Assembly (NCBI GenBank): GCA_036172245.1
Contig: JAYWIR010000024.1
Location: 2,356,001-2,420,000, forward strand
Direction of reading: 5' to 3'
DNA: 64,000 bases
Origin: Raillietiella orientalis
Taxonomy: Eukaryota
In this document: positions 4,187 to 54,501 of the stretch, piece by piece
Numbering within the stretch: position 1 is the stretch's first letter
Layout of the letters: each line of letters opens with the position of its first letter
Program-made: the position numbers and the translations under genes
The notes under the pieces: generated by a model
Seen by the model: only the letters and a program-made list of their open reading frames with translations
What the model was told of the DNA's origin: nothing
Database searches by the model: none

Positions 4187-6865
4187 TCACTTTACAAGAA
4201 TCGTGAGGGTTTCGCGTTTCAAATCGATCTGCGTTATCAATTTTGTCATCATGTTCTGAGAAATCGTCCACATTTCCTTGTCCGACCTCAATCCGGTGGC
4301 AAACCCCAGCACTTTGGAGACTCCTCTCTTCATCTGCAAGGGCATACCGACGTAAGACGGATCGCAATATCCCGCCACGACGGTTAAGGGTTATCTTCCG
4401 CTTTGCGTGCGGCATGAGCGAGGAAAAGACAGGCGTGTAAACAACGTGTCAGGCGAGTTCTCGATGTACACGTACCGAAAGGTGTCAGCAACCTCTCAAA
4501 TGTAAACGTACACTCTGAGGAAAGAAAGTGACGCTTCGAAGATAAGGGAACACGCAAGCACGTCGGTGTGAAGAAAGAGTGCAGCTGCTCCTCTCCATTA
4601 GTCGCGAACATCACGGAGCAGAGCTACTTTTGTCACTTCGTTTGACATTGGATACAGTCTGAATCTTTATAAGATGCAGTGGCGTTAACGATAGCAATTC
4701 ATTCGGCACTGCCGATTGCTTAGTGTAATAGTTATCAACTACAATTAGCTGAATGGCTAGTACTGCAATTAGACCGCTAGTTGCCATTACGATTGGCTGA
4801 ATGGTTGCTTATTCATTTGAGTGGAATTTTGTGAATTTTAGCTACTCACCGCCATATGGAACACGTAATCTTCTGGTTTCATCTCAAGCTCTGCACCATT
4901 CATAAATGTGTAGGTTACACTGGGCCATGAATCAAGGTCACCAGCAGGCTGTTGAATAGCTGGAAGCTGCTAGGAATGGAAACTGATCTGGAGACTCACC
5001 CCGTACAAGTGGTCCACATTCAAAGGCACGATGTTGTTCCGGAATTGCTGCATAAACTTGTTACTGACTTGAGCGACTGGAAGAGCTGTATCCAAGTAAG
5101 CAAGGCAAGTCCTCTCACACATTTCTACATTGCCGACCTTGATGCTGGAAAGGACAAACGGTGGCGGTTAGTGTTCTCGGACTGACAGCGTCGGTGGCTG
5201 TGTACTCTCGTGGCTCCCAGCGTTGCATTTTCGAACACGTATAAAAGCGATCGACGTAGAGGGAGTTCCGTGTTTTTCTGCAGCTTGAGGCTAAGGGTGG
5301 ATCACCATTGGGGAATGCGTCTGTAGGGCAACTCCCGCGGTCCGCGGTCGGATAGCCCATGACTAGTGTTGGAAATCGAGAACGCTCCGAGGGCCTTCCC
5401 AGAAATCATGGAGTGGTTCCCTAGGGGCTTCGTTCCCAGCATTGCGAAAGCCCTACTCCACGGATCGCTGAACCCTACTCCACTTGTACATCAGTCGGTC
5501 GCTTGCCCAAAGAAGTCATGTGAGACTCCATGCGGCGGAGCTGACGAGCCATTCCGATGCCTTCAAAGTGGCATCGGAACGGCTTACTCGGAAGACGAAG
5601 TAACGGAAGAAAAGTAGAGGGACGCGAGGAGCTGAAAGCGAGGATGCGAGTTTGTTCCCCAACGGCCGTCTTTCTGGAACCCCACATGTTCGCGCGTCCT
5701 TAAGGATTGAGCTGCAGAATCTAAGGAATGGCGCTGAAGATCCTTAGTTGGCAGAATATTCGAATTCTGCAGCCCGTCTAAAGATCTTCCTACACGCCTT
5801 ACCTCTCGAGCTACCGTGATCAACCTGCACTCGGGAAGCGAACAGCGGGCAGATCACTCCGAGTTCAGACAGTGCAAGAAGGTATGCACTTACCTGCGCA
5901 AATGAATCTTATATTGAGATTCTCTTGTGTTTATCGAGTAACTGGCGCAGAGACTTGGATTTGGAAATGGATACGGCGCTCCCAAAACAACAGTCCCCTT
6001 TCTCTGATTGCTGGATCGAGGTGTATGACGTGTTTGCAGTGTTTTCGAAGGTCTGCTTTACCGATCAAACTCCATATAGGCGACTTGATGCAAGTTATGG
6101 TCCCTCAGAAGAGAACCCAAAGCTGGCGGATTTATTCCGAAGAACCCGTCTACCGACAGAAAATTGATGTAACTGCTTGGTTTCGAGTTTACACTGAAAA
6201 CAGCTATGTTTCTCGTGAAAACGTGATTTCCAACTTTCTGGAACAATACAATTTTAATGCGAGATGTACGCAGATGACCCACAGAGAGAGGCCTTGTTTT
6301 GGCTCGCTCTCACGAAATTTCAACTTTGCAACCATAAACTCACAAAGTTGAACTTGCGCTGATATCCAAGCAGTTTAATATCCAGCAAAGGATACTCCTT
6401 CCGTTGGTCGGTTTCAGGGCTCTTTGGTAAGTGTGAAATATCGTATCTGTGGCGACGTGCTGCGAAGAAACAGAAATTACCCCATGTTCTCCCTCCTAGT
6501 CCAGTCCCACGTACTGCAATAATCCGACGAGCACTCCGAAGATGGAAGCCACACGATGTCAGACCAGCTATCGAAAAGCACACTGTATTTCAGCCTGTTG
6601 CTCCTGAACTCCAGGATGTATGCTCCCTTGAAAAAGAAAAAATCTCCTTTTAGCTCTCTGCATTCCTGAGTAAGACGAGTCCCACATTGTGATAAATCTG
6701 GTTCATTTCGACAGCTTTTACTTCTTCAGAAAAAAGTGATCTGAAATAGAGAGAGAAAAAAAAATGATGGTTCCGACAGAGGCAATTCAAGTGCTAGGAA
6801 TGCGTTGCCAAAACTCACATCGTCAGAGCCAAGAATGAAGCCGCGAGTGCCTTCAAAGCCGCCAT
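4187..6865 (-). CDS. Secreted pepsin-like (family A1) aspartic protease homologue with non-canonical active site, copy 1; 9 exons, 337 aa
   Basis: Manual GT-AG model, all phases compatible, no internal stops: exons 6865-6819, 6740-6686, 6626-6515, 6459-6344, 6237-6062, 6010-5894, 5144-5000, 4948-4850, 4333-4187. Signal peptide-like N-terminus MAALKALAASFLALTISLF. Pepsin landmarks: YSVLFDSWSDIVWLPSSEC....C, DGFFGI, GTVVLG, YKIHLRSIKVG, C...CLAYLDTA, PSVTYTF..G..LEMKPEDY, VLGF...WTI...ITQID. Confidence 0.88.
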
Positions 6866-6900
6866 CCTGCTCGCCTGACCTCTGGATCCGCCAAGGATTG

Positions 6901-6908
6901 CTTTTATG
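6901..6908 (-). promoter_or_regulatory. Putative TATA-like box (CATAAAAG) of the pepsin-like gene
   Basis: The same motif lies ~36 nt upstream of the ATG in all four paralogues (also 22754-22761 minus, 38785-38792 plus, 51782-51789 plus), within a conserved upstream block. Confidence 0.45.
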
Positions 6909-9157: not shown

Positions 9158-9166
9158 CATTCCAGC

Positions 9167-12100
9167 CACCACCATCAACAGAGTGATGCGTGGAATCGCC
9201 TCTTGCCGGCACTTGCGCATAGCCTGTTGGAATGTCAACGGGCTGCGTGACGAAGGCAAGAGGCGCGGCGTGGTCGACACCCTGAGGCCTTTCGACCTGG
9301 CTCTTCTCCAGGAGACGCACGCGCTCAGAGGAGAGGACGTCCAGGAGATCGAGAGGATCACAGGGGGACCAACCTACTTTGGCGATTAGGCGGAAATCAC
9401 TCCCGTGGAGTGGCCTTCCTGCTGAAGCCAGCCGTCGAAAATGCGCTGCGCAACGTACAGTTCGACGAGGAAGGTCGAGTTGGGCAATTTGTTCTCAAGT
9501 GGTCCGATTCGATCGACCTCGTGGTGACGAACGTGTACGCGCCCAGCACCAGACACAGGTCCGTGGAACGCACTGCGTTCTTCGAAGGCCTGTGGCGAGA
9601 CTGGCTGGCCGAAGCAGGCGTGCGGCGGGGGCATCTGATAGCAGGAGACTTCAACGCTCGTTTGCTGTCAGAGGCGCCCGATACACGAGCTCGAATGGTC
9701 AACGAGATGTGTGCGGCCATGCACACGTGCAACTTGTTGACCGATGGCGCCGAGGTGGCGAACAGAATCGACCACGTATTCCTCGACAACCACCTGTGCA
9801 CGCGGGTGGGGACTCGAGGAGCACTTGCGTCGTATCTGTCCGATCACCCTCGGCTAGTGCTCCATATCCACCCGCGCGACCGAGGTCCACCCTCCCAAGC
9901 GTGGCGCCTGCCGGGAGACTGGTTGCGCCTCGCAGGAGCGCGCGAACACCTGCGTGCATTCCTGCGAGGTTGCGATCTGCAGACTCTCGCTGACTGGGAC
10001 AAAATAAAACGCTCAGTCCGAGAGTTCTGCAACCAGTATCCCCTCCATCAACTTCCTCCAGGTTTCGGTGATGCCACCCGGGTACTCCGGGACGTTTATT
10101 AAAAAACGTTTCATTCGTCATTACAGTACGTGGTACAAGGCCCCACTAACGGCCAATATTCCGTAAGACCTGCCGGGACGCTGGTACGCAGACCAGCGTG
10201 ACTCTACTCAGCAGTGGAAGGGGATGGGGGGAGAAACAAAAAGAAAAATAAATAAGTAAACAAAAAAAAAAAAGAGTTTTTGGAGGGAAGGGAAGGGATC
10301 ACTGTCCACTGGGAGGAGGGTCCATCCTTAGCAGGATACCCTCGAGTTCCTTTTTCAAACTTCCCAGCCGGGGCCATCCACTAGCTCTCCGCAGGAAGCG
10401 AACAGCATAGGGGATGACAGCCATCGCGCTTGAATCCACTCCTTCGTCGCGGGTATCGCTCCAGGCCGCCACGATGCCTCGGATGCAGCAGAGTGCTGCC
10501 ACGGCTGCAGCTGGCTGAAGGGCGTCCCGCACGAAGAGAAGACGGAGAACGTCTCTGGGTTGGCTGCCCAACGGGAGCCCGAGGGTCGTCCCAAACCGTT
10601 CCCAGAGGGGTCGGAGGGCAGCACAGTCAGCAAGTAGGTGGGAAAGCGATTCCCACTCTCCGCACCTGGCACACTGTGGATCCACCGCTCCCCTTGTCCA
10701 GTGGAAGCGGTGTGCGTTGCAGGGGAAACCCCAATGCAACAGTAGCAGCGCCGATTCTTGCCACTTAAAGGGCAGGATCCTCGATTCCAACAACACCAGG
10801 GGCCACTTCATCACATCCGTGGGGATGGCGAGAAGCTCGCCCCAGCGCAAAAGTCATCTCGGCTGGACGCTCGGGGTCGTGGCGTCCGCCAGTTCTCCTG
10901 TTGTCCAGCCGCTCATCATCTTCTCCCTGCCTGCGATTCGGCAGGAGACTTGCCACCTCGGCTTCTGGCTGCCGTAAAGCGCCCTCCGGAGGTAGGGCAT
11001 CGCCGTAGCAAGGGTGGTCGTCTCCGCCCAGGAGCAACTCGCTGGAAATTCAAGTATTTCTCGCAGGGTGCAGTGGGCGTATGGGCCGACACGCAGGCAA
11101 TTCATGGGATCTTCACTCCTCTGGTTTAGCTTAGCCCATGTGCCAGCAGTCTCCTTCAGCCAGGCGGAGGAGTTGGCGGGGCTACAAACCATCCAGCTGT
11201 TCTCCTTTGCCAGGTTTGCCATGCGCCGGAGCATTAGGCCGCATCTTCGGATCTTCCGGCCGGAGCACAGAAGAAAAGACGCGAGTCCTTCGCATCGTGA
11301 CACGACTGGCGAGGAGGCGAGCGGGAATGCACCAAGGGGTGCTCCACATCTTCGCTGCGATGGCGAGGGTGCGCCATTGCAGCTGAATTTCCACGCGCTC
11401 CAGCGTCAGGAGGCTAAGACCGCCGTCCCGACGTGGAGCGCAAAAGTCCCTCAGAGGGACTTGGGGCCTCCCCTTGCCCCAAAGGGCGATGTGGAGGAGG
11501 TGAAGCTGAAGGGGTGAGGAACGACAGGAGCTATCTGCACGCCCGTCGTTTCTCCAACAAGCCCGACGTCCGTCGCCTGGCGGAATTCAAGGCTGGAGCA
11601 GAGAGGCAGGCCTGGCAATCCAAGTCTGCCTGCTTACTGGACGAAGAAGGCCAGGAGCAATCCACTCCAGCGCAGGTTTGCCGCATATTGCAGGATTTTT
11701 ACTCCTCCCTTTACGCGAAAAAAACATCAGAGCGCGTCTTTGCGCAGCGTCTGCTGCCAGAGGGAGCTCCTGCGCTAAGGGAGGAGCAACTTCACCACTT
11801 AGAACAAGAATTCACGATGACGGAGATTATCTCCGCCATCGTGAAACTAAAAAAACATAAAGCACTAGAGGAAGATGGCCTGCCAGCGGAATTCTATCAA
11901 CACTTCGCGACAGAGCTGGTCCCCCTGGTGCACAAATTATGTACGCTGATCCGTGAACGTGGGGATGTCCCCAACTCGTTCCGGTCAGCTAGAGTACGTC
12001 TCCTGCCCAAGGGTGGAGACTTGCGCAACGTTGACAACTGGCGTCCCATCACTATAGTGAATGCGGAGGCGAAGTTGCTTGCCAAACTCTGGGCTGAGCG

Positions 12101-14435
12101 ACTAGGACGGGTAGCGGAATCCGTGGTCAGTCCGGAACAGACTTACGCTGTCCCCGGACGAACCATGGAGGCCAACCTGTTCCTCGCCAGCAGCTGGTGG
12201 CAGTTGCAACAACGCGAGGCTCAGCTAGGTCGTGAGAGTCTTGGACTCTCCACAGATCGGGGGGAGGGAAGCCGAAGGGGTGAAGCGGCGCCCGGAGCCC
12301 TTGCGGTCGCAGTCGATCTGCGTAAAGCTTTCGACAGCGTCGACCAGGAACTCCTCCTGGAGCTTCTGGAACGCATGGGATTCCCGGCCGACTTCCTGGC
12401 CTATCTGCGCTCCTGCTGGCGCTTCGCCTACATCAATATTTGTTTCAGCGGCCGGCACGTGTACGGCGTTCCGGTTCGTCGCGGCATTCGGCAGGGCGAC
12501 AGCCTCAGCCCCCTGCTCTTCAGCATCTACTTTGAGTTGGTGCTGAGAGCATACAGGGAGACTTTGGCAACCCTTCCCGGCTCGTGTCCCGGCACGCCTG
12601 CCGTGTCGGCCTATGCGGACGACCTTCTGCTCCTGCTCCCCGGGTCCACCCCGGCATCGGCGCTCGAGGATTTCTTCGAGTTGCTGAGCCACGGTTCAGG
12701 CCTCGAGGTGAACAGGGCGAAGTCGTCGATCATCTTCACTGACTCGTCGCGGGCAGGATGGCCGGACTGGATCCGCTTGGGGATCCCCACGGGCGGGTAC
12801 TTCAAGTACCTGGGCGTTCCGTTGGGGGACTTCTGCGCTGCAGAAGCCTGGTCCGACCGTCTTCAAAAGGTGGAGTTAGCGATCGGCCCGTTCCAGGACG
12901 GCAAGTTTTATTTGCGGGAACGGGCCGCGGTGTGGAACGCCTTTGCGGCCTCCCTCCTTCGCTCTCTACTTTTTGTGTGTCCCGCCCTTCTCCAAATTAG
13001 GACACGGACAAGGGACCTCATCAGACTCAAAGATATGTGCTCTCCACGCAGGGACGGTGGACTTGGTATCCTGACGTTGGAGCGCATGGAGCGTCAGCTC
13101 CAACTAAGAAAACTTGCCTTCGCGGTAAAATATTGGACAGCACCATGGTGTGCGCCCATACGACTCCTCGCCCACAGGGCAACCGGCTGCGATGGACTAA
13201 CTTCAGCCCTCGTAGCCAACGACGGCAGACTGTACCATTGTGGTTCACAGCTACGTGAATTGGTAGCCCTGGTGAGGAGCAACCCTTGGATCTCCTGCAG
13301 CCCCGCAAACTGGACTACCTGGCTCCAGGAGTCCGTTTCCGCCAAAAATCAACGGCTCCAGAGAGGTGGACTTCTCCTGCCTTCGTCGAGGCAGGAACTC
13401 TGGCCAGCCCCTGCGGGAGATCGTATGCAACCCACAAAAGCTTTTGTGGGTCTCATTCACCCCCCTTGCCCCCGTGCTTCCCTCCCTTATAGAAGCCAGG
13501 GACAGCCAAGAGGAGGCTTGTTACGAAGTGTCCTGCCTCATCGGAGGCAGGAAGAAACCAATGAAGGCGTGGACGTCCCGGGAACTAGCGGACGCTACAA
13601 CCCCGAGTGTCCCGCCAAATGGAATTGTGCGCTGGGGCGAGCTGCTCGGCATGCCTCCGGAGGAGGTGAAGTGGCCCCCGGCGTATTGGGACAGTGGCAC
13701 CCTCCCCTTGGATTGGCAGGAGACGGCGCTGCTTGTGCTCCATTGGGGAGTTCTGAGCAGAGCACGCCTGTCTCACTGGACATGAGGGAGAGTGGAAGCC
13801 CATTGTACAGAGTGTGGGGAAAGGGAGACCTTCCCCCACTTACTCATCGAATATGTTGCCCTCCGCCGAACGTGGTATCGACTCTCGTCGGCCATAAAAG
13901 TAGCGGTGGGCGACCCTAAAAACATTTTTCTTCGCCTCTTGATGCGGAACGCCCTGCCAGGTGCCGCGTGTGTTGCAGTTCTCTGCTGCATACGAGGAAT
14001 ACTGGACAAGTGGTATGCGTCGATAAGAGGCCACAGCAGTCGGAATGCCATCCACTGGGCGGTGATCTCCATGGAGGAGGCTTCCCGTTGGCGCCGGCTG
14101 AGAAAAATTCTGCCAGCACTTGTTAGCATCAGGAATCAGATGCAGAGGCCTTCACTCAGCGAACAGTGATCCCATTCCTTCCCTCTCCCTCCCCATAAAC
14201 AATGTCCCCCAGACGTTTTTTTTGTTTTTTTGTTTTGTTCTTTTTGCTGTCCCCTTCGCGAGTGGGGTAGCCCTTACCGGCACTCAAGTCGGTAAACAAG
14301 TGCAAAAAATATTCGAAAAGTGTTGCGACAGGAACACAAAACAATTCAAACATCGACTGAAATTCATAATTGTGATTTTATATTTTTAAAATAATAAAAG
14401 CCCCGGCTTACCCGGGTGAAAAACCCGGGTGAAAA
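9167..14435 (+). mobile_element. L1/Tx1-clade non-LTR retrotransposon, 5'-truncated just before ORF2 (APE endonuclease + RT + zinc-finger region + 3' UTR), inactivated
   Basis: APE motifs IACWNVNGL, LLQETH, NVYAP, AGDFNA, RIDHVF, SDH (9183-10094, frameshift ~9390). RT motifs WRPIT, DLRKAFDSV, GIRQGDSLSPLLF, YADD, KYLG, GGLG (11517-~13400). Frameshifted C-terminus with CTECGERETFPHL. TSD CATTCCAGC at 9158-9166 and 14436-14444. Confidence 0.93.
10095..11516 (-). mobile_element. 5'-truncated related LINE inserted antisense inside the Tx1-like element
   Basis: Minus-strand peptides RDFCAPRRDGGLSLLTLERVEIQL, WGELL and the CCHC finger CARCGEWESLSHLLADC (ORF 10299-10850). A distinct 3' UTR ends in AATAAA at the junction. 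Confidence 0.88.
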
Positions 14436-14444
14436 CATTCCAGC

Positions 14445-15300: not shown

Positions 15301-16049
15301 ATCCTTTTTTTCTCGCATGAAGAAAGCGTTCTTCTAATGGCTTTCCTGCGTCAAAGGTTGCTAGTCAGGAATGCTTCATTCGGATGCAACGGCCGTTCGA
15401 CTACCGTGGACAGCGGCCATCACCTTTGAGTCTTCACTCCACGAAGCAATCAAAGCCAAGGAAACTATTCGCTTATCCTTAGTTTCACGATCACGAGGGG
15501 CGCTTTATTGAAAGATGATACAGTAAGTTGCTGTATCATCCGATGGCCGGCAAATCGCTCATGGCTGGCGAGCGAAATGAGAATGGCTGATCAAATCCGC
15601 AACTTTGAAAAAGCGTAGCGAGAATAGAAGTGTTTTACGTGAGGGTCGTTCCGCACGATCTTTTTTTCTAGGCAAATACGTAAGCACTCGTGTTGAGTTT
15701 CGCCCAAGTAATCCAAGAGGAAATCAGCCTCCTCTCCCATTCAAAAAAATAAAAGGGGGAAAGTTGGGCAAGTGCACTAAAGATATCCTGTGGCGAAGAT
15801 CGCAGTGAGGACCCGGAACGAGAGGTAATCAAGAGCAGAAGTGAAACGTCCGTAAGAGTGCCTATGAGGGGCAAAGGATGTGCCCGTGGTACATAGGTCG
15901 CAACCAGGTCTGAACCACCAAGCAAAGAAAAACACATTTTTTCCAAAGGGTGGGATTTGATGAAATTTTCGAGAAGAACGTTCGCATTGCGCTGAGGAAG
16001 AAAAATTGCAGCCTTTACTCCAGGCTGTAGCTTGAGTACGGAGATTCAC

Positions 16050-19520: not shown

Positions 19521-20095
19521 ACAGATTCGGCATCCGTCTATGGCGAGAGCCCTGGACGCATCCTTCGGCAAACTCTTCTTCCACTTCCATCGATGTTGTG
19601 GCTTTTTCTTTTCCAAGATTTGTACTTTGATACTGCCGTCTCTGATAATCCTGACTCTTGATTCTTTGTCATGATTTCTTAGAGACTCCTAATTGGGTGC
19701 ACTTTGTTCCAAGAGAAAGGAGACAGAACGCTTTCTCTTCTCCCGCTAAAAACAAAATTCCCTTAAGACCAATGGAACTTTGACTGTCTCTTGCGCCCAA
19801 GTGCTTGTTGCTGGTGTTTGCTGGGGTTGCGACCAAGCAACAGCAGCAATCACATGATACGTTAGAGTCTGTTCGGAAGTCACTTGATCACCCCCTACGG
19901 TACACCCTCAACTTGGCTTCCTGCTCACATATGTGTTTTTCTCAATGGTGCCTTCATTTGAAGGGACACTCTATCGGAAGGCTGCTGCAAGCTTCGAGAT
20001 ACCACTGAATGCCAAATGAAAGGACACAGAGGAGGAATTATCTCCTTTAATTGGCATGCAAATCAGTGACCACCCACAACGCGAGCATCTCAGTT

Positions 20096-22718
20096 TCACT
20101 TCACAAGAATGGTGAGGATTTCGCGTTTCAAATCGATCTGCGTGATCAAGTACGTCATCATCTTCTGGGAAATCGTCCACATTTCCTCGTCCGACCTCAA
20201 TTTGCTGGCAAACCCCACTACAGGAACAATTCTGCGGCTTATCTGAAAGAAACATTCCGACGTCAGTGGAACATTAATCTCCCATCACAATGGTTCAGGA
20301 TTTCGTCCACTCTTCCGATTTGCGGGAGACACGAGCGAGGAAAAGACAGGCGTGTAAACGACGGGAGACGCGATTTTCCGGTTCCAACACTCTGAAATAG
20401 TGTCATGGACCGTTCAGATGGGAATTTATAATCTGGGGAAAAGGGAAAGTGACTCTTCGGTAATCACAGAACATGCAAGCACGTTGGTGTCAAGAAAGAG
20501 TGAAGTTGCTCGTCTTTGTTCGTCGGCAACATCACGAAGAAGAGCAGCTTTTGTCTATTCGCTTGCCATTTGGTCCATTGTAACTCTTAAGAAGACTAGC
20601 GGCTTGAACGATAGCAACTCAGTCGGCTCTGCGGATGGCTTAGTCCCATGGTAACTTAGTACAATTGGTTGAATGGTTGCCCATTTATTTGAGTGGAATT
20701 TTGCGAATTTTAGCTACTCACCGCCATATGGAACACGTAATCTTCTGGTTTCATCTCAAGCTCTGCACCATTCATAAATGTGTAGGTTACATTGGGCAAT
20801 GAATCAAGGTTACCAGCAGGCTGTTGAATAGCTGGAAGCTGCTAGGAATGGAAACTGATCTGGAGACTCACCATGTGCAAGTGGTCCACATTCAATGGCA
20901 CGATGTTGTTCCGGAATTGCTTCATAAACTTGTTGCTAACTTGAGCTACTGAGAGAGCTGTATCCAAGTAAGTAACGCAAGCCCTCTCACACATTTCTAT
21001 ATTGCCGACCTTGATGCTGGAAAGTAATAACCGTGTTGATCAAAGTTCTGAACTGCCACCGGTAGCGGCTGTGTGTTGCGATCGCATCCTCTAACCTCAT
21101 CCTTCGAGACTATGCAGAGGTTAAGTATGGATCAGGATAGGGCACCCTCATGTCCGCGGTCGAACGTCGTATTGACTAGCAGTCGGGAATTGTAAGTGAA
21201 CCCTTCGGAGTCACTCCCCCCTGTCTTAGAGTAATTCCCTTGGAGCTTTCCTCTCAGTGATTGAGAGAATGGTCACTTCCAATCTCCGTTCGCCGCTTCA
21301 ACCGTACCACGATCGGACGCGCGACAAAAGAAAAGCCGTATGAGACTCCATGAGGTTGAGTTGGCGAGCGTTCCGATGCTTTCACAGGCTCATCGCCAAG
21401 GCTCCATCTCGGAGGACGGAAAAAGGAAAACCTGAGCGTCATAGAACGACGGAAGCTGCAAGCAAGGATCCCAATTGCATCCCCAACGGCCGCAGTCAGC
21501 TGCGGTCGTCTTTCTGGAATCCTACATGTTCATTGTCCTTGAAGATTGAGCTGCAGCTATAAACAATGACGTAGATGATCCTTAGCTGGCAGAATCCTAG
21601 AACTCGGCAACCGTCAAAAAGTTCTTTCTACACACGCTACCATTCGAACTACTGTCTTCAACTTGCACTTAGGAAACGACGACAACACAAGCAATTCCGA
21701 GTTCAGACTGCAAGGAGGTTTGCACTTACCTGCGCAGGTGAATCTCATAGAGCTGATCTTTCTTCTTGATGGGGTATTTGGCACAGAGATCGGGATTTGG
21801 AAATGGATAGGATTCTCCCAAAACAACACTCCCCTTTTGCTCTCTCCTGGATCGAAACGTTTCACGTGTTTGCCATATTTCGAAGGTTTGCTTTACCGAT
21901 CAAACTGCATGTAGGCGACTTCCTGCAATTTATGGTTCTTCAGAAACGAACTTAAAGACAGCGGATTTATGCCGAAGAACCCGTCGACCAACAGGAAACT
22001 GAAGTAACTGCGTGGATACGGATCTACATTGAAAACTGCGATGTTCCCTGTGAAACTTTCATATCCAAATTTCTGGAACGGATCCGATTTGAATGCCACA
22101 TGTACACAGTTGACCCACGAGAGGGGCCTCGTTTTGGTGCACGAAATTTCAACTCGGCAGCCATAAACTCACAAAGTTGAAGCTGCGTTGATGTCCAGCC
22201 AGTTTAACATTCATGAAAAGATACTGCTTCTCTTGAGTGGTTGCAGGGTTGTCTGGCAACTTCGAAATATCGTATGTTTTTCGATGTTCTGCAAAGAAAC
22301 GGAAATCCCGGATGTTCCCACTCTCAGTCCATTCCCCTTTACCGCAATATTTCGACGAGCATCGTGATGATGGAAGCCACAGAACATCAGTCCAGGTATC
22401 GAACAGCACACTGTATGTTGTGAGGTTGGTCATCATGTCTGCAGTGCATGCCCCCTTGAAAAAGAAAGAATCTCTTGTTATCTCCCTGCATTTCTGAGAA
22501 AGATGACTCCTACATTGGTACACATCAGGTTTATTGCGACAGCTTCTCCTTCTTCATGAAAAAGTGATCTGAAAGAGAAAGAGAGAGAGAGAGAGGGAGG
22601 GAGAGATGATGGTTCAAGCAGAGGGAATTCAAGTGGCGGGGATAATCCAGAATAGTTGCTGGAAAACTCACATCGTCAGAGCCAAGAATGAAACCGCAAG
22701 CGCCTTCGAAGCTGCCAT
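20096..22718 (-). CDS. Secreted pepsin-like aspartic protease homologue, copy 2 (9 exons, apparently intact)
   Basis: Same intron positions and phases as copy 1. MAASKALAVSFLALT..., YSVLFDTWTDVLWLPSSRC, DGFFGINP, CERACVTYLDTAL, ends ...QIDLKREILTILVK*. No stops after splicing. Confidence 0.87.
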
Positions 22719-23204
22719 CCTGCTCGCCTGACCTCTGGATCCGCCAAGGGTTGCTTTTATGTCCCCAAGGGCACTTGTGAAAATTTCGGAAAATGGAATT
22801 CCAAACGGCAGCAGGTGTTTCTTATTCCCACCTCAGGACACCTGCGCCACGTCTTTGCATATTGATTCCCAGTTTTCGAGACACGGTTTGGGAATTTCAC
22901 TAGACGGAGCAGCGGTTCCCGGGAAAGAAGAACCTGTGAACGCCGAGGTGTTTGGAAAGCGGATCACATTCGATTTAACGGAGTCGGCTTGGGAGCCCAT
23001 TCGTGCGAGACGGTAAGGAGAACCTTTTAAGGAGGCAGGGGACTCTTGCATCCTAAAGGTACACTCGATGGAGCTCTGGAACAAGCCTTCGGGTATAGGG
23101 CCGCGTAGGAAAGCTCGGACATCCGCGTTAGTGCACAACGGGCAGGCACATCCTGCTGCAGCATCAGGAAGTCGGAACGTTCCCAGTTTGGGACCAATGG
23201 AAGC

Positions 23205-23420
23205 TGCTGCACACTACAGGCTTTATGCTGTGACCCTTCTGAAGAGAACCCAAAGCTGACAGCTTTATGACGAAGAACCCGTCTATCAAAAATTGATGTA
23301 TTTGGTTGGTTGCGGATTCATATTTAAAGTGGATATTTTTAACGGTAAACTGTGGCGTCCGAATTCCTGGAACGGATCCGATTTGAATGCGACATGTACA
23401 CAAATGACTCCCCATACTGC
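23205..23420 (-). pseudogene. Isolated, frameshifted fragment (intron 4 end + exon 5) of a fifth pepsin-like copy
   Basis: EFGRHSLPLKISTLNMNPQPTKYINF / IDGFFVIKLSALGSLQKGH matches exon 5 of the intact copies, with a frameshift. Confidence 0.8.
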
Positions 23421-36900: not shown

Positions 36901-38827
36901 CTGGAAAGAATCCATCCGCAATAAGAATCCAGTCATCATAAATAAGGATAGGTGCACTCAACGAGCAATAGGAATCGTTACATCAGGAATGCAAACGGAC
37001 GTCCTAACAAAACCTGGATCGATTCGTCGACGAACAAAACGAACCCATCACCTCGATCGAGCAGAGAACCACGAAGAAAAGAAAAGTCCAAGACCTTTTC
37101 TTGTTTCTTGGATGTCCACATAGTCGCCTCTGAGCAAAACCATCCTTCCCTCCACCTGGAAGCCCATGAAAAAACAATGACTTCCCAACACGGATCGCCT
37201 TTCAGCAAAGTAAATGGATCACAGGAAGCCTCCGTGCAACTGATGCTGTTTGCATCCTATGCGTCTTTCCCAAGAGGAACGAACCGATCCAATTCGGACA
37301 AAGAGGGAATCGAGACGAGTACACACCAACACGAAGGAAAAGCTCCTGTGCGTGCTCTCTTGCTCAATCCGAGGACAAATGGTTCTCTGATCCGAAGTGA
37401 GAGAGAAAAGCAGATACGTGAAAGCAGATATGTAACTCGGTTTTCCAGACAAAGCACATCTTCTCCAGTGTGCTCCATTTCAGCAGGATGAGTATTCCGA
37501 AATACAACTAGCGATTCTTTCTCTGAGGAGGAGGGCTTGGGTAGGCCAGCTAGAGAGATTTTCTGTTCTTATTTTCTTCATTCCTCTGAAAGAAAGAGTC
37601 TCTTAAACATGTTCTGGAGCCTCCACAGGCAACAGACTGGAGTCCTCATTCATTGAGCTTCCTTTTCCAAGAACGCTGTTACCATAAAAAGGCAAGTGAC
37701 AATCCTTAAATGCTCAATCTTCTTCAAGCATTTAAGGATTCTGACTGCGTGCTTATCGTTTAAGTTCCCCTTTGCGGTGCGAGAGATGCTGGATGAGATC
37801 TGATCCTGGCAGTGAGCAGAACATCTTCCAACGGAGAATTTTTTTTTTTTTTTTCGAAGAATGCTGCTGCAAGCAACAGACACGAGGGATGCGATGTGAC
37901 CTGGAATGATTTAATAGCAAAACGTCTCTCGTCTTTCTCTTTCCTCGTCCCCACATTCCCCGTTTTCTCATCGATACGAGCGGTTCATTCTTTTCCCTCT
38001 CCGTCGAGTCCGAGGTCAACAAGTTAGCATTGCCGGGAAACCGCAGTCGCACGCGGCAGTAAAAGGCCGTGGTAGGTACGTGCTCAGAATCCCCTTTGAA
38101 ACCTCAAACGTCATCGTATTGCTTTATTGATCTCTTGTGTCCTTGGTGAGTCAAGGGATTCCTCCTAGCGTTTGCCCCTTTTCCAGTTTGATGATCCATA
38201 GGCACCAGCCTTAGTTGATCAAAAGGCTTCTCTCTGATCACAACCCGAGTCAGAAGATCCACATGAAACTCCTAGATTTACTTCCCTGCCACTTCGCACC
38301 CGATTCCGTGCGACGAACAAGTGTTTGGACCACATTCTCATATAGTCCTCATTGTTCCTCTTATTATTATCCTTTTCGTCGGAAAGCAGGAGCTTTGTAG
38401 ATCATTCACGTAGAAGAATGATCTACTGACTGAATAGAAGGCCATTCCACCCTTCCAAAAATAGAAAATGCAGGAATGTATTCCTGAGCTCTTACGTGGT
38501 TGCTCCTTCCCTGCCTCCTTAAGGGTGCCTTCTTACAGTCCTGCACGATGGGCTCCGAAGGCGACTCTGTTAGAGCAAACGCAATCCCCTTTCAAGGCAA
38601 CTCGGCGCTCACAAAATCCTCGTTCCCGGGAACCGTTCCTCCGTCTTGTGAAATTCCCGAGCACCGCAAAACGATCTGGGAATTAATATGCAAGGGACGG
38701 CTCAGGTGTGCTGAAGTGGGGACAAGAAGCACGTGCTGCGTTCGAAATTTCATTTGCCGAAATTTCCACAGGTGGCCTTGGGGACATAAAAGCAACCTTT
38801 GACGGGTCCAGAGGTCAGGCAAGCGGG

Positions 38828-41490
38828 ATGGCGGCTTCGAAGGCACTCGTGGTTTCATTCTTGGCTCAGACGATGTGAGTTTCCCAACAACCATCCTGGA
38901 GCAGTCCTGCCATTTGATGTTCGAACCGTCACTTTTCTGCCTCTCTCTTTCCCTTCCAGATCACTTTTTCCTGTAGAAGGAGAAGCTGTCCTAATAAGCC
39001 AGACGTGCTTTGATGTAAGATTCAGCTTTCTTGGAGATGCAGAGAAATAACAGGAGTTTCTTCCTCGTTCAAGGGACAATACGTTGTGGCGATGTCTACC
39101 AACAAAGATGTATACTTCCAGGTTTTGGATAGCTGGACTGACATCGTGTGGCTTCCATCATCGGAATGCTCCTCGGATTATTGCAGTAATGGGGATTGGA
39201 TCGGGAGGGAGAACATAGGAAGACTTCGCTTTCTTTGCAGAACGTCGCCGCAGATACGATGCTTCAACGTTGTCAAAGAACCCTCCAGCAAACCAACAGA
39301 AAGAGTATTCTTTCGTGGATGTTAAGCTGAATGGAACTCAATACATCTTCAACTTTGTGAGTTTGTGGTTGGGAAGTTGCAACTTCGTGAAGGAAGAGCG
39401 AACCGACGCATCTCTCCTGCATAATCTGCGTTGCATTCAAATCGCATTGCTTCCAGAAATTTTTTGGCCACACTTTCACGAAAAATATGGCGGTTTTCGA
39501 TATAGATCCGCAACCAACCGAATACATCAATTTTCTCGAGAGTGACGGCTTCTTTGGCATAAATCCGCCGAGCTTAAGTTCTTTCCTGAGGGGCCATAAC
39601 TTGGAGCAAATTGCCTACATGGAGTTTGATCGGTAAAGCAAAACTTCCAAAGCACTGCCAACACGACAAACATCTCGATATAGCAAAGATCAAATTGGGA
39701 CTGTTTTTTTGGGAAAATACTATCCATTTCCGGATTTAAATCTCGGCGCCAATTACTCGATCAGCACAACAGAACCTGTCTATAAGATTCACCTTCCCAG
39801 GTATGTGCCCACCTCTACGTAGTCTGCACTCGGAATTGTTTGTGTTGTCTTCGTTTCCTAAGTGCAAGTTGATGACGGTAGCTCGAATGGTAACGTGTGA
39901 AGGAAGAACTTTGTTCGGGTTGCCGAGTTCAAGGATTGTGCCTATTACGGATCTTCAGGGTCATTGCTTAGAGGCGCAGGTCACTCTTAAGGGACGTGCG
40001 AACATGTGGGATTCCAGAAAGACGACTGCAGCTGACTGCAGCCGTTGGGGACGGAATACCGATCTTCGTTCGCTGATTTCCGCGTCCTTTTAGTTTTTTT
40101 CGTTTTTTCGTCCTCCGAGTGAGGGGTCTTTCCCATGTTTCTATGAAGGCATCTGAACGGCTCTTCAGCTCCGCCGCATGGAGTCCCAAAATAGTTTTCC
40201 AGTCAACTAACCGACCGTAGTACGGGTGAAGCGTGGAGGAGAGATCCGAAGTTACCACTCCCGCAATGAGTGGAAGGGAAACTCAAAGGAAACCTCTCTG
40301 GGATTGATTGGAAAAAACGAAGAGCGATTACTAGTCATGAGTCAACCGACCGCGGTCATGAGGGTGCCCTCTCACTCTCCCCAATCCAGATCCATCCTTT
40401 GCGTCATCTAGCGAAAAGACTCGAAACCTCCTTTGCGTCGATCGCTTTTAAAACTGTTCGAAAACGCAATTCTGGACACCATGAGAGGATGCCGTGGCAA
40501 CACAATGCCTTCGACGCTAAAGGTCCGAGAGCAATGATCACCACAGTTTTTCCTTTCCAGCATCAAGGTCGGCAAAGAAGAAATGTGTCAGAAACCATGC
40601 GTTGCTTCCTTAGACACAGCCATTCCAATTGCTCAAGTTAGTAAGGAATTTATGAAGCAGTTCGAGAAGCAAATTAAACCTCTGGGTGTGGACCACTTGT
40701 ACGGGGTGAGTCTCCTGATCATTTCCCATTCCTAGCAGTATAGAGCTATTGAACAGCCTACGAAGAAGTTGGATTCATTGCCCAGTGTAACCTACACGTT
40801 TGTCAGTGGTGTAGTGCTTGAGATGAAACCACAAGATTATGTCATGGATATCAAAGTGAGTAGCCAGAGTCCACAAACTTCAACTCAATTAAATAACCAA
40901 CTATTCAACTAATTGTACTATCAACCATTTAACCATTAGGCTAAGCAATCCACAAGGTCGACTCACTTGCGGTCGTTCAAGCCACTGCATCGTATAAAGA
41001 GTCAGGATGCACCGAATAACAAGCGAAGTGACGAAAGCAGATCTGCTTCGTGATGTTCGCGACGTACAGAGAGAAGCAGCAGAATGAATAATTATGAATC
41101 TCTTGCTTCGTATCGAAGTGCTTGCGTGTTCCGCTATCTCTGAAGCTCCCTTCTCCCCAGAGCGTAAATTGACACTTCGGCGGTTCCTTTCGGTACGTCC
41201 ACACCGAGAACGCGCGTCGCACGGTGTTGACACGCGTCTTTTCCTCGCTCGTGTCTCCTGCAAATCAATAGGGTGGCCATAATCCTCACTCAATCATCGT
41301 GGGGCGAGATTGAGCTCCGACTAACACCGCCTTTTCCTTCCAGGTGAACGACACACTTGTCCCTGTGTTGGGGTTTGCCACCGGATTGAGGTCGGACGTG
41401 GAAATGTGGACTATTTCTCAGAACATGATGACACACCTGATAACGCAGATCGATTTCGAAAAAGACACCCTCACGATTCTTGTGAAGTGA
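38828..41490 (+). CDS. Secreted pepsin-like aspartic protease homologue, copy 3 (9 exons, apparently intact)
   Basis: Same exon structure. YFQVLDSWTDIVWLPSSEC, DGFFGINP, CQKPCVASLDTAIP, ends ...QIDFEKDTLTILVK*. No stops after splicing. Confidence 0.87.
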
Positions 41491-41859
41491 CATTGACATG
41501 CTCGCGTTGTGGGTGGTCACTGATTCGCATCCGTGATTAAAGAATATGATTCCTTCTGTGTGTCCTTTCACTTGGCATTCAATGGCATCTCGAGCTTCCA
41601 GAAGCCTTCTAATAGAGCGTCCCTCCAAATGAAGACCACATTGCGAGAAATACATGTGTGAGCAGGAATCCAAGTTGAGGGTGTACCGTAGGGGGTGATT
41701 CGACGCAGGAGCCAAGAGACGCAAATCAAGTTACCTCCGAACAGATTCTAATGCTTCATGTGATTGCTTCTGCTGCTTGGTGACAACACCAGCAACCACC
41801 AGTAACAAGCACTTGGTCGCAGAAGTCAGTCAAAACTCGCTGTCCTTATGAGGTCTAGC

Positions 41860-44030
41860 AAACGTCCAAGCGGTGCAAGGAACGAAGATCGGTAGACGAC
41901 GCAAGCGCAGCACGTTAGGAAGGGAAGGACGTACAAAATGCATCAGGAGGTCCGGGATATTCGCTGAGACATCGGTTGTCCGTCGGGAAACAGCTGTCCC
42001 AAGAACTACGGAGCGCCACTGGGTGCATCGTGTTTCTGCGAAAGGAGTGGGCATTTCGTTTCTCTTCCCTCCGGTATGCTGGTTGCACATCTACGCGAGA
42101 AGAAATCGGAAATAAAGCGAGTAGAAGTGTCGGGCGATTTTTTTTTTTAGCACGCTGCATGCACAGGATTTAGAAAGAGGGGACGAAAAGCAGCTTCCTC
42201 CTGTTCGGTTTTACGAACGAGTGCAGCTGGCCGGCGGTTCCTCTCGTGCTTCCGAGGCAGCATGGTGGCCACCGGCGACTCCTACCCGCGTATCTTCGCG
42301 ATCCGTGAGGTCCCTAGCAGGGACGCCTCCTTGCGGTAGACAACGATTTTGCCACCTCCTCTCGAAGGCTCCCACCTTGCAGTCCACTGGGCACGCTGCG
42401 CCCTCTTCGGAAAGCAGGGGGGATCCATCGGGAAGAGGGCTGAGAGGGTGAGTGCTGGAGCAGCGCTGCACGAGCACCCCAGTGCGTTGTCGTGCTGAGT
42501 GTGCACCTCGGGGGCGGAGGAAAACGAGCCGAGTTCGCAGTTACTTGGATCGGCAGTGTTCACGGTGCCCAGCCCTACTCGCTGCGTCGCTCGTTTGGGC
42601 ACACCGCGTCTGCGATCTCGGGAGTGTTAGAAGAGACGCCGGAACTTGTGAGAAAAGAACTGACGGAGGTACCGAGTCATGCGGGCTGCAGATGCTTCCT
42701 AGGAACGGCGATCTGCTGCAGCATGCAGTTTCTGCTGCCAAGCGGGCGGATCCCGCGAAGCTTTGATCACCTAGTCGCATCTTTTGCACGGCATCCTCCA
42801 TCAGGTGAAGCAGACGTGAGTCTATCCGCGATCACGCAGAGTCCGGTTCAGTTCGGTTCTGAGGTGCCTTCCAAGAACGGTGCTGTCCGTGAGTTGGACT
42901 TGTGGACCGAGAGCTGGTACGCGGTCAGCAAGTGGAGTGATCGCGTAAGACAAGAAGCACACCCACGCCACTTTCCGCAGCCTCCCTCAGGTCAAATGGG
43001 TCCTGTGTGTGCGCGCTGGCACTCCTTCCTTCATGCGTGAAGTCAGCTCCAAGCGGTCCGAGGGTGCGCGTGCTTTCGTTCGGATGATGTCACCATCCGG
43101 TTCGTTCCAGCTTCCACCATACTTTCCTGCAGTCTGCACTGGGCTGCCTCTTTGCAGACCTTGGTTTGCCCTTTCGGACGAGCTGTTGCTTCTCTTCAGT
43201 GGTTCACGCAGCTGAAAGCGGATTTTACTCCGCTTTCGGGCACCATACCGCAACAGGCGATGGAATTCCCTCTGACATCTAGCGGGTAGTCCTCAGACTG
43301 CGCCATCCAAACGTGGAACATGAAAAACGTCCTAGCTTCTCCGGATTCCTTCTGATTTCGAAAACCTTCATCGCTAAAGGAGGAAAAAAGAAGGTGATTT
43401 GGATATTCGGAGGGTTTTTGGCTACTGTATGTGTGTGTCTGCGATGAATTTTTGTACCTCCAGATGGAGTATGCAGTACGGAGTTGGGCATCTCTCGGAA
43501 TTGTCCAGCGCTTCGCTTCTTGCATCAGCGGAACAAGCAGCGGAAGATGCCTCGTGATCCATCTAGATGTTGCGGCTGATCTGGAGAAATGAAATCGAAT
43601 TGGGAAAATAGCCCTTGAGGACTCTGGAAGAGCAATCGAATGGAATGAGCACATGAAAATCGAAAAAGAGACGATCGCAGCCAAACAGTCAGTAGGAGAC
43701 CAAATTTGCACTACAAGAACCTCGAACTTTTTATCTTTTTATCAAGAGATTTTACACGGTTCACTCTCCGTCTTGTGCACCCGTCTTTCGGTTTTCCCTT
43801 TGGAAGTCTCCTGCCATCCCTTAGGGTCACTTTCTCGACTCGCTCTGGTGCCGACTTCGGAAGGCTGCGGAGCACCAGAGGACAAGATCGCCAGCGCTGA
43901 TTCGCCTCACAGATCTCACGGTATTTGTCTCCGGACATGTTTAGAAGTTTCCTTTCCTCTCCTTCCTGCCGACTGTGGAAGTGTCCACAGTTTTCTGAAG
44001 ACTTTGCCTGCGGGAGTTTAGTCCCGTTTC

Positions 44031-51000: not shown

Positions 51001-51824
51001 GGGGGCCAAGAAAATCATCAGGAAGTAGTCATATGGGTCCTCCTACGCCCTCGAGAGCCACGTGGCGTGCATATCTCGTTGGCGCATCAGAGTCAAGTAA
51101 AAAGCATTGTCCCCTCAGCCAGGGTTCTCCATCCCATAGATGTCCCGTAGCGTGGACTAGTCAGGTCATCATCCTTCGTAGAGAGAATATTACCACCACC
51201 TGTGCTTGGAACATTCGGCACTGAGGCTGTCGTCCTGAAGATGATGTACGTCAGCGGTGCTTCGCTTCGTCAAGGAGGTCGCGGTTTCGGAACGCAGGAT
51301 GCTCGTTAGAGTACACTTCTCTGGCCACTCTTCCACGGAGAGCGGAAAATCAACCACGTACAGATGAATCCACTTGGGAGTTTCTGGAAAGATTGCATGG
51401 AGGAGAATGCCTCCCGAGGGCGACTGCGCTCCCGACGGCGGGACATCCTACGCGGCCCTCCACCTGAGAATGTGTTCCTGAGCTCTTTCGAAGCTGCTCC
51501 TCGGATGGAAGATTCCCTAGCCTTTTCAAGGGTGTTTTCTTACCGTCCTGCTCGAATGGATTCCTAAGGGCTCCCCACTAATGCGATCCTCTTCCAAGGC
51601 ACTTCGGCTCTCACAGAATCCTCGTTCCCTCTTTTTTTCGTCCTCCATCCTCAGAAATTCCCAAACACCACATCGCGAACCGGAAATCAATATGCAAAGG
51701 GGCGGCGCAGATGTCTGTGGCGAGAACACCTGCTGCGTTCGAAATTTCATATGCCGAAATTTCCACAGGTGCCCTTGGGGACATAAAAGCAACCTTTGAC
51801 GGGTCCAGAGGTCAGGCGAGCGGG

Positions 51825-54501
51825 ATGGCGGCTTCGAAGGCACTCGCGGTTTCATTCTTGGCTCTGATGCTGTGAGTTTTCCAACAACCATTCTGGAACA
51901 TTCCTACCATTTGAATTTCCCCTGTTCAAACCATCATTTCTATCTCTGTCTCTCTTTCTTTTCCAGATCATTTTCTGCTGAAGCAGCAGCTGTCAAAATG
52001 AAGCAGATTTTTCACAATGTGGGACTCATTTTTCTCAGGAATGCAGAGAGATAACAGGATATTCTTTCTTTTTCAAGGAAGAATACGTTGTGAGCATGTC
52101 TACCAACAACGTGGAATACTTCCAAGTTTTGGATAGCTGGTCCGACATCGTGTGGCTTCCATCATCGAAATGCTCCTCGGCTTATTGCAGTAATGGGGAC
52201 TCGACCGAGAGGAAGGACATAGGGCGATTTCGCTTTCTTTGTAGGACGTCGTCACAGATACGATGCTTCAAAATTGCCAAAAAACCCTGCAGTAAAAGTT
52301 CAAAAGGAGTATTCATTGCTGGATGTTAAGTTGAATGGATATCAACACATCTTCAACTTTGTGAGTTCAAATTTTGTCAGGAGAAAGCGAATCGCCTCTC
52401 TCGTGAATGATTTGCATACATGTTGCATTGATATGGCATCCTTTTTAGCAATGTGGTGACCACATTTTCACGAAAAATGTAGCGGTTTTCGATATAGATC
52501 CGAAACCAACCAATTACCTCACTCTTCTGGTGAACGACGGCTTCTTAGGCATAAATCCGCCAACTTTGAGTTCTCTTCTGAGGGACAGTAAACTGGAGCA
52601 AATCGCTTACATGGAGTTCGATCGGTAAAGCAAACCTTCGAAAGTATTGCCAACATGTCTAATATTTCGATCCAGCAAAGAGAGAAAGGGGACTGTTGTT
52701 TTGGGAGAATCCTATCCATTTCCAAAAACAAAGCTCTGCGCCAACTATCGAATGCGAAAAACAGAACCTCTTTATAAGATTGAACTGCTCAGGTAAGATG
52801 CTTGCACCTCTTTGCAGTCTGAAATCGGAATGTCTGTTCGCTGTTCGTTTCCTAATTGCAAGTTGATGACGGTAGCTCGAATGGTAACATGCGTAGGAAG
52901 ACCTTTCAACGGGTTGCAGAGTTCAAGGATTCTGCCAACTAGGGATCTTCAGCGTCATTCTTTAGAGGGGCAGCACATTCTTTAAGGACGCGCGAAAATG
53001 TGCAACTCCAGAAAGACGATCGCAGCTGACTGCGGCAGTTGGGGATGGAAGTCGGTTCTTCGCTGCTCCTCGCGTCCCTCTAGTTTTCTTCGTTTTTTCG
53101 CCCTCCGGGAAGGAGCCTTTCCGATGCTCCTATGAAGGCATCGGAACGGTACTTCAGCTCCGCCTCACGGAGTCTTACATGACTTTTCTATTACCGCGCG
53201 ACCAACCGAAATACGGATGAAGCGGGGATCCGGGATCCCAAGTCACCACTCTCTCAATGGCTGAGAGGGAAATTCCGAGGGAACCACTCCATGATTGCTA
53301 AGAGCGACCCGAAGGGTTCACTCACGATTCCCAACGGCTTGTCAATGGGGCATCCGACCTCGGACACGAGGGTGTCCTACCGATGCATTCCCCAATCTTC
53401 ATGCATCCTCAGCCTAATCTTGCGAAAAAACTCGAACCCCTTTCTGCTTCGATCGCTTTTATGGATGTTCAAACACGCAACACTGGGTGAGAAGAGAGGA
53501 TGCCGTGGCAACACACAGCCTCCAATGTTAAAATTAAGAAAGCAATGACCACCACAGTTACTCTTTCCTAGCATCAAGGTCGGCAATGTGGAAATGTGTG
53601 AGAGAGCTTGCCTTGCTTACTTGGATTCAGCTCTTCCAGTCGCTCAAGTTAGTGACAATTTTATGAAGCAGTTCGACAAGAAAATAGAATCTCTGAGTGT
53701 GGACCACTTGTACGGGGTGAGTCTCCAGATCATTTCCCATTCCTAGCAGTATCGAGCTATTGAACAGCCTACGAAGAAGTTGGATTCATTGCCCAGTGTG
53801 ACCTACACGTTTGTCAGTGGTGTAGTGCTTGAGATGAAACCACAAGATTATGTCATGGATATCAAAGTGAGTAGCCAGAGTCCACAAACTTCAACTCAAT
53901 TAAATAACCAACTATTCAACTAATTGTACTATCAACCATTTAACCATTAGGCTAAGCAATCGACAAGGTCGACTCACTTGCGGTCGTTCAAGCCACTGCA
54001 TCGTATAAAGAGTCAGGATGCACCGAATAACAAGCGAAGTGACGAAAGCAGATCTGCTTCGTGATGTTCGCGACGTACAGAGAGAAGCAGCAGAATGAAT
54101 AATTATGAATCTCTTGCTTCGTATCGAAGTGCTTGCGTGTTCCGCTATCTCTGAAGCTCCCTTCTCCCCAGAGCGTAAATTGACACTTCGGCAGTTCCTT
54201 TCGGTACGTCCACACCGAGAACGCGCGTCGCACGGTGTCGACACGCGTCTTTTCCTCGCTCGTGTCTCCTGCAAATCAATAGGGTGGCCATAATCCTCAC
54301 TCAATCATCGTGGGGCGAGATTGAGCTCCGACTAACACCGCCTTTTCCTTCCAGGTGAACGACACACTTGTCCCTGTGTTGGGGTTTGCCACCGGATTGA
54401 GGTCGGACGTGGAAATGTGGACTATTTCTCAGAACATGATGACACACCTGATAACGGAGATCAATTTCAAAAAAGACACCCTCACGATTCTTGTGAAATG
54501 A
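51825..54501 (+). CDS. Secreted pepsin-like aspartic protease homologue, copy 4 (9 exons, apparently intact)
   Basis: Same exon structure. MAASKALAVSFLALMLSFSAEAAA, YFQVLDSWSDIVWLPSSKC, DGFLGINP, CERACLAYLDSALP, ends ...EINFKKDTLTILVK*. Confidence 0.87.

Follow-up and report, generated by a model that had tools for sequence, protein, structure and literature searches.

What can four pepsin-like genes encode that keep both catalytic aspartates and have replaced the glycines beside them? The question is raised by a stretch of the Raillietiella orientalis genome (NCBI GenBank assembly GCA_036172245.1, contig JAYWIR010000024.1, positions 2,356,001 to 2,420,000 of the forward strand). The whole 64,000 nucleotides (nt) that were analysed are called the window here, and positions are counted from its first letter. 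An earlier description made from the letters alone, the sequence-only reading, had proposed that the region from 4187 to 54501 holds a cluster of intact genes for secreted pepsin-fold proteins with altered catalytic motifs and no propeptide. Our analysis led us to assign a probability of roughly 0.6 to the explanation that these genes (g1 to g4) form a lineage-specific family of secreted, non-catalytic pepsin-fold binding proteins, that is, pseudo-proteases of peptidase family A1. Proteins of this kind, of the Bla g 2, RmPAP or PAG type, are already known; the family itself is new and carries an unusual replacement of Gly by Trp.

A six-frame motif scan and tblastn searches with exon-like frames of g1 identified a cluster of four paralogous genes, two on each strand (Table 1). 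Exon borders were placed from a DNA alignment of the four units. Each gene comprises nine exons, GT opens and AG closes all 32 introns (64/64 splice dinucleotides intact), and all frames are open, giving spliced proteins of 344 amino acids (aa) for g1, g2 and g3 and 343 aa for g4. Exon 2 of g4 contains a single 3-nt in-frame deletion. The four nine-exon genes were thus found where the sequence-only reading had placed them, the ends of its region, 4187 and 54501, being the stop codons of g1 and g4. Its protein length of 336–337 aa did not hold, and the borders of exon 2 are probably the source of the gap. Extra exons in introns 6 and 8, suggested by early tblastn matches that contained stops, were rejected, as conservation there was no better than in other introns.

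Table 1. Positions of the genes, their motifs and the other features of the window
Feature	Position	Strand	Remark
g1	6865..4187	-	9 exons, 344 aa; GT..AG introns, open frame
g1 exons	6865-6819, 6740-6686, 6626-6515, 6459-6344, 6237-6062, 6010-5894, 5144-5000, 4969-4850, 4333-4187	-	
g2	22718..20096	-	9 exons, 344 aa
g2 exons	22718-22672, 22568-22514, 22454-22343, 22288-22173, 22072-21897, 21846-21730, 21016-20872, 20841-20722, 20242-20096	-	
g3	38828..41490	+	9 exons, 344 aa
g3 exons	38828-38874, 38960-39014, 39074-39185, 39241-39356, 39457-39632, 39684-39800, 40561-40705, 40736-40855, 41344-41490	+	
g4	51825..54501	+	9 exons, 343 aa
g4 exons	51825-51871, 51967-52018, 52078-52189, 52245-52360, 52449-52624, 52676-52792, 53572-53716, 53747-53866, 54355-54501	+	
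N-lobe motif DSW, g1	6564..6572	-	Asp53; Trp at the A1 Gly position; aligned to D-T-G of the A1 profile
N-lobe motif DTW, g2	22392..22400	-	
N-lobe motif DSW, g3	39128..39136	+	
N-lobe motif DSW, g4	52132..52140	+	
C-lobe motif DTA, g1	5084..5092	-	Asp226; Ala for Gly, Leu for the next Thr
C-lobe motif DTA, g2	20956..20964	-	
C-lobe motif DTA, g3	40613..40621	+	
C-lobe motif DSA, g4	53624..53632	+	
Flap YPLLD, g1	6380..6394	-	Tyr aligned to the near-invariant A1 Tyr
Flap YLFMN, g2	22209-22223	-	
Flap YSFVD, g3	39306-39320	+	
Flap YSLLD, g4	52310-52324	+	
TATA-like box CATAAAAG	g1 6901..6908 (-); g2 22754-22761 (-); g3 38785-38792 (+); g4 51782-51789 (+)		43 nt before ATG
ATTAAA, poly(A)-signal-like hexamer	g3 41536..41541 (+); g2 20046-20051 (-); g4 54536-54541 (+)		
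Conversion tract g3/g4	40680..41487; g4 side 53691-54498	+	end of exon 7 through exon 9; 10 differences/866 columns
Conversion tract g1/g2	4809..5000; g2 side 20681-20872	-	intron 7 and exon 8; 6 differences/191 columns
Near-identical promoter and exon-1 tract g3/g4	38734..38868; g4 side 51731-51865	+	4 differences/135 columns
Exon-5 relic of a fifth copy	23176..23372	-	directly upstream of g2; 5 tblastn matches, 34-43% identity, E down to 1e-4
Repeat of about 2 kb	25170-27004 (+), 34335-36838 (+), 55140-57733 (+), 16016-18000 (-), 41855-43436 (+)		
LINE endonuclease frame	9251-10102	+	283 codons
LINE reverse transcriptase frame	11418-13919	+	833 codons
LINE, partial inverted copies	7-933 (matches 13751-12851); 10474-10951 (matches 14000-13526)		
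Arf-family GTPase gene	60786-61385	-	199 codons; Pfam Arf, E 1e-57

Homology to A1 peptidases was assessed with a reference set drawn from metagenome contigs, which had been fetched with a degenerate DNA pattern that encodes the usual N-lobe motif. The set consists of 28 complete intron-less A1 frames, all of which match PF00026 (Pfam Asp; 28/28), and the proteins compared with it were spliced from the window coordinates. A hidden Markov model (HMM) of the 28 references scored the four spliced proteins at 37.5, 31.5, 28.0 and 25.3 bits, against 3.3 bits for the best of 1000 shuffles, in alignments spanning the first motif to the C-terminal strand. When the four-protein alignment was compared with the 28 references by hhalign, the probability was 98.1% and the E-value 8.4e-14 over 289 columns (residues 40–339), with 17% identity between family and references. 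At E ≤ 10, a profile of the four copies of exon 3 matched 58 PDB sequences, every one of them from the pepsin family. All the matches fall on the first catalytic motif and the first disulfide, and the best is 5n7q_A, annotated as 'putative cathepsin d' (E 4.3e-6). Single exons were also aligned by hhalign: exon 7 fell on the C-lobe catalytic motif and its Cys pair (E 0.0018), exon 5 on the expected D-G..G loop (E 0.091) and exon 9 in the wrong place (E 0.26). In the exon-wise scans of Pfam, no piece matched TAXi_N or TAXi_C. With A1 matches over the full length, the pepsin-fold identity given in the sequence-only reading is upheld; judged by these alignments, full-length homology to the A1 fold is established, and the family is very divergent.

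In this alignment, 22 of the columns that are invariant in the 28 references could be aligned, and seven of them are kept in all four copies, among these the two Asp, the first-motif Trp that follows and the D-G..G of the N lobe. Both Asp, the Ser/Thr following the first motif, the next Trp, the flap Tyr and the N-lobe D-G..G loop are kept throughout (4/4). As the sequence-only reading had recognized, the motifs have become D[ST]W and D[TS]A: the N-lobe Gly is replaced by Trp and the C-lobe Gly by Ala in every copy. For the Thr that follows the second motif, g1–g4 have L/L/I/L. The flap has indeed kept its Tyr and lost the G-x-G, with P/L/S/S (g1–g4) for the invariant A1 Gly after the Tyr and I/V/V/V for the near-invariant Gly two residues on. 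In the C-terminal 'hydrophobic-hydrophobic-Gly-Asp' loop, Gly-Asp has changed to Ser-Gln (4/4). The alignment also agrees with the earlier count of disulfides, since Cys pairs 66/71 and 217/221 are present in all four copies and both Cys of the third A1 disulfide are gone, replaced by K/P/P/P and A/A/T/T. Among the references, the first motif is invariant as a consequence of the fetch pattern; the C-lobe Gly and Thr are invariant independently of it. None of the marks of an active peptidase (two D-[TS]-G motifs, a flap Gly-x-Gly, a prosegment and three disulfides) was found in the family. Gly at both motif positions sits where two active-site loops meet. No precedent for the N-lobe change of Gly to Trp was found in the literature on Bla g 2, RmPAP and PAGs or in the matched structures. 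The catalytic hydrogen-bond chain is described as Asp32, Asp215, Ser35, Trp39, Tyr75 and Thr218 in PMC6221303; five of these six residues are present in the family and Thr218 is absent.

The kept residues led us to consider that g1–g4 might encode atypical yet active aspartic proteases, for example digestive ones, in which the two Asp would work in a rearranged site and no prosegment would be needed. According to PMC6345952, BYC and a Plasmodium enzyme, each without one catalytic Asp, still cut haemoglobin, which indicates that unusual A1 sites are able to cut. Selection also acts on the frames, as shown below, and five catalytic-site residues (both Asp, Ser/Thr, Trp and flap Tyr) are conserved in all copies. 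Against such activity stand the changes of Gly to Trp and of Gly to Ala at positions invariant in the 28 A1 proteins (in the N lobe, an invariance set by the fetch) and the loss of the second-motif Thr, of the Gly in the flap and of the Gly-Asp loop near the C-terminus. The inactive Bla g 2 shows milder changes than these at the same two Gly positions. Its catalytic triads carry substitutions, and PMC3423599 reports that it showed no activity in the standard assays with milk clotting and haemoglobin. We regard active proteases as an unlikely explanation.

The first Asp lies at residue 52/53 in the four proteins, compared with a median of 92 (range 53–140) in the 28 A1 proteins. The N-terminus is hydrophobic (mean Kyte-Doolittle value 1.98–2.33 over residues 6–19), is followed by an acidic stretch and looks like a signal peptide. 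Since a signal takes up about 20 aa, there is no room for a prosegment before this Asp. Behind a 20-residue leader the Asp would be numbered 32–33 in the mature chain, just as it is in mature pepsin. The proposal that a putative signal runs straight into the mature fold is retained.

Incomplete gene models would account for the missing prosegment in another way. A normal prosegment would be encoded by another exon, located either upstream or within intron 1 or 2, and the proteins would be ordinary zymogens with odd motifs. At 47 and 52–55 nt, respectively, exons 1 and 2 are short, and they are defined only by a conserved ATG, GT and AG, and the hhalign match begins at residue 40, leaving the first 39 residues unanchored by homology. 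However, reading through the end of exon 1 leads to an immediate stop and reading through exon 2 likewise ends in one, and introns 1 (78–103 nt) and 2 (59 nt) are too short for a 40-aa exon with its splice signals. The HMM alignment of g4 moreover extends back to residue 31, across the junction of exons 2 and 3, and all four copies share this arrangement. A concealed prosegment exon is in our judgement very improbable.

The four proteins are 58–73% identical pairwise. Across the six pairwise comparisons, the exons show no frameshift in 1032–1035 nt per pair and a single 3-nt in-frame indel overall, and the introns show 15–33 indel events per pair in 1507–1603 aligned nt. Scaled to exon length, the intron rate predicts about 10–23 events per pair, against 0–1 seen in the exons. 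Exons differ at 153–272 positions per pair (15–26% of sites), and no stop has arisen; in a simulation that placed 75, 100 or 125 substitutions at random, 5.9%, 2.5% and 0.9% of the coding-sequence copies, respectively, were still open. By this comparison the reading frames are maintained by selection, the conclusion that had already been drawn from their being intact. The ratio of nonsynonymous to synonymous substitution rates (dN/dS) was 0.59–0.76 pairwise, and the fraction of bootstrap replicates with a ratio of 1 or more was 0–0.042. Substitution divergence K was 0.17–0.32 in exons and 0.19–0.34 in introns. The amino-acid sequence may be weakly constrained or in part subject to diversifying pressure, as estimated from four sequences that convert one another.

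Three tracts of near identity between copies were found (Table 1). Intron 8, which lies within the longest of them, diverges by 1% in g3/g4 versus 25–29% in the other pairs; outside the tracts the divergence is 15–39%. Such exchange bears on whether the copies are alive at all. Unexpressed or recently silenced copies could have open frames through recent duplication and gene conversion, and this would fit dN/dS values whose upper limits approach 1 for two pairs, exon K values close to those of the introns, the conversion tracts themselves, surroundings of repeats and a long interspersed nuclear element (LINE), and the fact that one further copy is already an exon-5 relic. The conversion tracts, however, cover only 135–866 of about 3000 columns. 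The deficit of exon indels, with the only one seen being 3 nt long and in frame, and the absence of stops despite all the differences between copies, where random substitution closes most frames, also speak against silent copies, as do the intact splice dinucleotides and a TATA-like octamer with the same letters and the same 43-nt spacing in 4/4 genes (a consensus match only). Silence of the whole cluster appears distinctly unlikely.

Two further observations concern the gene ends and introns. An ATTAAA hexamer lies 35–46 nt past the stop codon in three of the four genes (46 nt in g3) and was not found in the 87 nt read past the stop of g1. Intron 2 is exactly 59 nt long in all four genes (g1 6685–6627), with no indel in any pair and 12–31% of sites differing. 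This fixed length may reflect a lower size limit for so short an intron.

Relatives were sought with single-exon queries. Word-index protein searches gave 5 candidates for exon 7, none of which scored, and 35 for the exon-3 alignment, none of which scored at E ≤ 10; both results count as weak evidence. The exon-3 profile was also run by HMMER exhaustively against 1.84 billion representatives and yielded a single match, P0001, in a search in which ordinary A1 proteins score too low to show with a profile of 37 positions. P0001 was rejected as a repetitive chance match, since this protein of 2393 aa aligns in 21 stretches that all fall on profile positions 27–37. In the ESM Atlas, the best score for exon 5 was 0.75, to an unrelated viral cluster, and gave no lead. 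The protein collection of the word-index searches covers arthropod proteomes, as the Arf-like protein encoded in the window (see below), used as a query, matched many arthropods. Because the queries were short, only fairly close relatives could have appeared, and within the reach of such searches the family appears to be lineage-specific. The suggestion that it is possibly undescribed can accordingly be kept for the family itself, for which no close relative was found; for the kind of protein it has to be dropped, as arthropod precedents are published.

One gene-structure comparison was made with A1 loci from metagenomes. The intron after the first motif lies 61 nt from the Phe codon, in phase 1, in the present genes, and 54 nt past the Phe codon, in phase 0, in eight metagenome A1 loci (L005, L011, L019, L025, L055, L080, L108 and L120). 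No inference is drawn from this difference in intron position.

Among the known systems, the PDB entries 5n7q, 5n70 and 5n7n ('putative cathepsin d'), which we take to be the Ixodes ricinus enzyme IrCD1, share with exon 3 the stretch '..WLPSS.C...YC' and the first disulfide. Active cathepsin D-type proteins differ from the family in having D-T-G twice, a prosegment, three disulfides and activity. Bla g 2 keeps both Asp, is changed at the Gly positions and has no prosegment. It has extra disulfides and a zinc site, whereas one disulfide pair is lost here, and it was absent from the 58 PDB sequences matched by the exon-3 profile at E ≤ 10, which argues against close kinship. Bla g 2, Per a 2 and Lma-p54 are described as inactive aspartic proteases of cockroaches in PMC9541408. 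They resemble g1–g4 as secreted arthropod A1 look-alikes with triad substitutions, and a physiological function has yet to be assigned to them.

A close description is that of RmPAP from the tick Rhipicephalus microplus, in which a predicted signal, M1–A20, is followed by the mature chain R21–K361 (341 aa). According to PMC6345952, RmPAP showed no proteolysis and bound haemoglobin, and a non-proteolytic binding role was proposed. The likeness lies in an arthropod A1 fold, a signal of about 20 aa directly before a chain of about 340 aa and an altered catalytic centre. In RmPAP, the second catalytic Asp is Pro, whereas g1–g4 keep both Asp and change Gly (to Trp and Ala) and Thr; this comparison was made on the published description. 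PAGs of ruminants and pigs likewise form a multigene A1 family with nine-exon genes and tandem expansion with pseudogenes, and many members are thought to be inactive and still to keep the peptide-binding cleft (PMC6221303 and PMC11431107). They differ in being mammalian and placental and in keeping the prosegment, mostly D-T-G and three disulfides (three pairs for BuPAG 7). There is no kinship between PAGs and this family beyond shared A1 membership. From their sequences, g1–g4 appear to combine the two marks of the secreted pseudo-proteases of arthropods, an A1 fold with a disabled centre and a signal directly before the mature domain.

The preferred explanation, a family of secreted non-catalytic binding proteins, can be put as follows. 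The hydrophobic N-terminus of about 20 aa would direct the proteins into the secretory path, and the mature fold would follow directly, with no zymogen step, as would suit a protein that needs no latency. With the packing glycines, the Thr, the flap Gly and the C-terminal loop lost, the cleft would be unable to position water and substrate, and the Trp at the N-lobe Gly position would fill the space of the catalytic water and the substrate. What the disabled cleft would do instead is bind a peptide, a protein or a small ligand. The copies stem from segmental duplication, their proteins change rapidly, selection holds the frames open and segments are exchanged by gene conversion. The sequence itself shows the gene structure, the A1 homology, the residue changes, the missing prosegment, the maintained frames and the conversion tracts; secretion, lack of activity and a binding role are the parts of this explanation that we infer.

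Several observations weigh against this explanation. Five residues of a working site (both Asp, Ser/Thr, Trp and flap Tyr) are retained in 4/4 copies, and BYC, which cuts haemoglobin without one Asp, means that loss of a motif is not proof of inactivity. The 97.5% bootstrap limit of dN/dS is 1.04–1.05 for g1/g3 and g1/g4, and the constraint on the amino-acid sequence is therefore weak. Exon by exon, PF00026 was found for exon 3 only, and below the 19.9-bit gathering cut-off (g1 11.1 bits, g2 13.8 bits); it was not found among the 32 other exon pieces. Searched singly against the PDB, exons 5, 7 and 9 retrieved no A1 chain: the only matches were two weak and unrelated ones for exon 9. The signal peptide was deduced from hydropathy, and the borders of exon 2 are supported by the conserved GT and AG only.

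The family can also be read as an arthropod counterpart of the ruminant PAGs, that is, as fast-diversifying secreted 'frozen' pepsin clefts in which the Trp would plug the centre and a variable flap and N-terminal strand would set the ligand. The flap and the N-terminal strand differ among all four copies. The scaffold exons would be held similar by gene conversion as the specificity exons drift apart. The ligand might be a peptide, haem or a metal, or else a protein, such as a protease of foreign origin, with a part in digestion, defence or reproduction. We put this forward tentatively and hold it to be rather doubtful.

The duplication units around the genes measure about 3.3–3.5 kb and share 71–82% DNA identity, and on this alignment the copies arose by segmental duplication. 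A fifth copy is represented by its exon 5, and no other exon of it was found. The expanded family claimed in the sequence-only reading can thus be stated as four intact copies and one exon-5 relic. Each of g2, g3 and g4 has a copy of a roughly 2-kb repeat downstream; two further copies lack a gene and are 92% identical to each other. The repeat contains a 257-codon open frame without a Pfam match and may either belong to the duplication unit or be a repeat in its own right.

The same reading had called the surroundings decayed. This is correct insofar as the flanks consist of LINE pieces and repeats; it does not hold for the 833-codon reverse transcriptase frame, which is open, or for the Arf-family gene, which is intact. 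The LINE lies between g1 and g2, with its endonuclease and reverse transcriptase in different frames, and partial inverted copies of it are present (Table 1). The Arf-family GTPase gene is intronless and stands in a stretch with a GC content of 0.34, versus about 0.5 elsewhere. Among the 120 best matches listed for its product, identity ranged from 62 to 74%, and ARL4-type arthropod proteins were best. Those of the matches listed that carry organism names come from arthropods of many classes, save one brachiopod and one annelid. By these matches the host is an arthropod, and one that lacks a near relative in that database. Rfam gave no match within the window.

Pseudo-proteases are a recurring and poorly understood product of gene duplication. 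In the arthropod cases Bla g 2, Lma-p54 and RmPAP, the natural ligand is still open or has only been suggested. The present family opens no new category, and its value is that of a well-defined new family. Its four intact, diverged copies, with the same active-site changes and clear selection on the frame, form a natural series for studying which parts of a disabled cleft are kept, such as the scaffold, both Asp and the flap Tyr, and which are free to vary.

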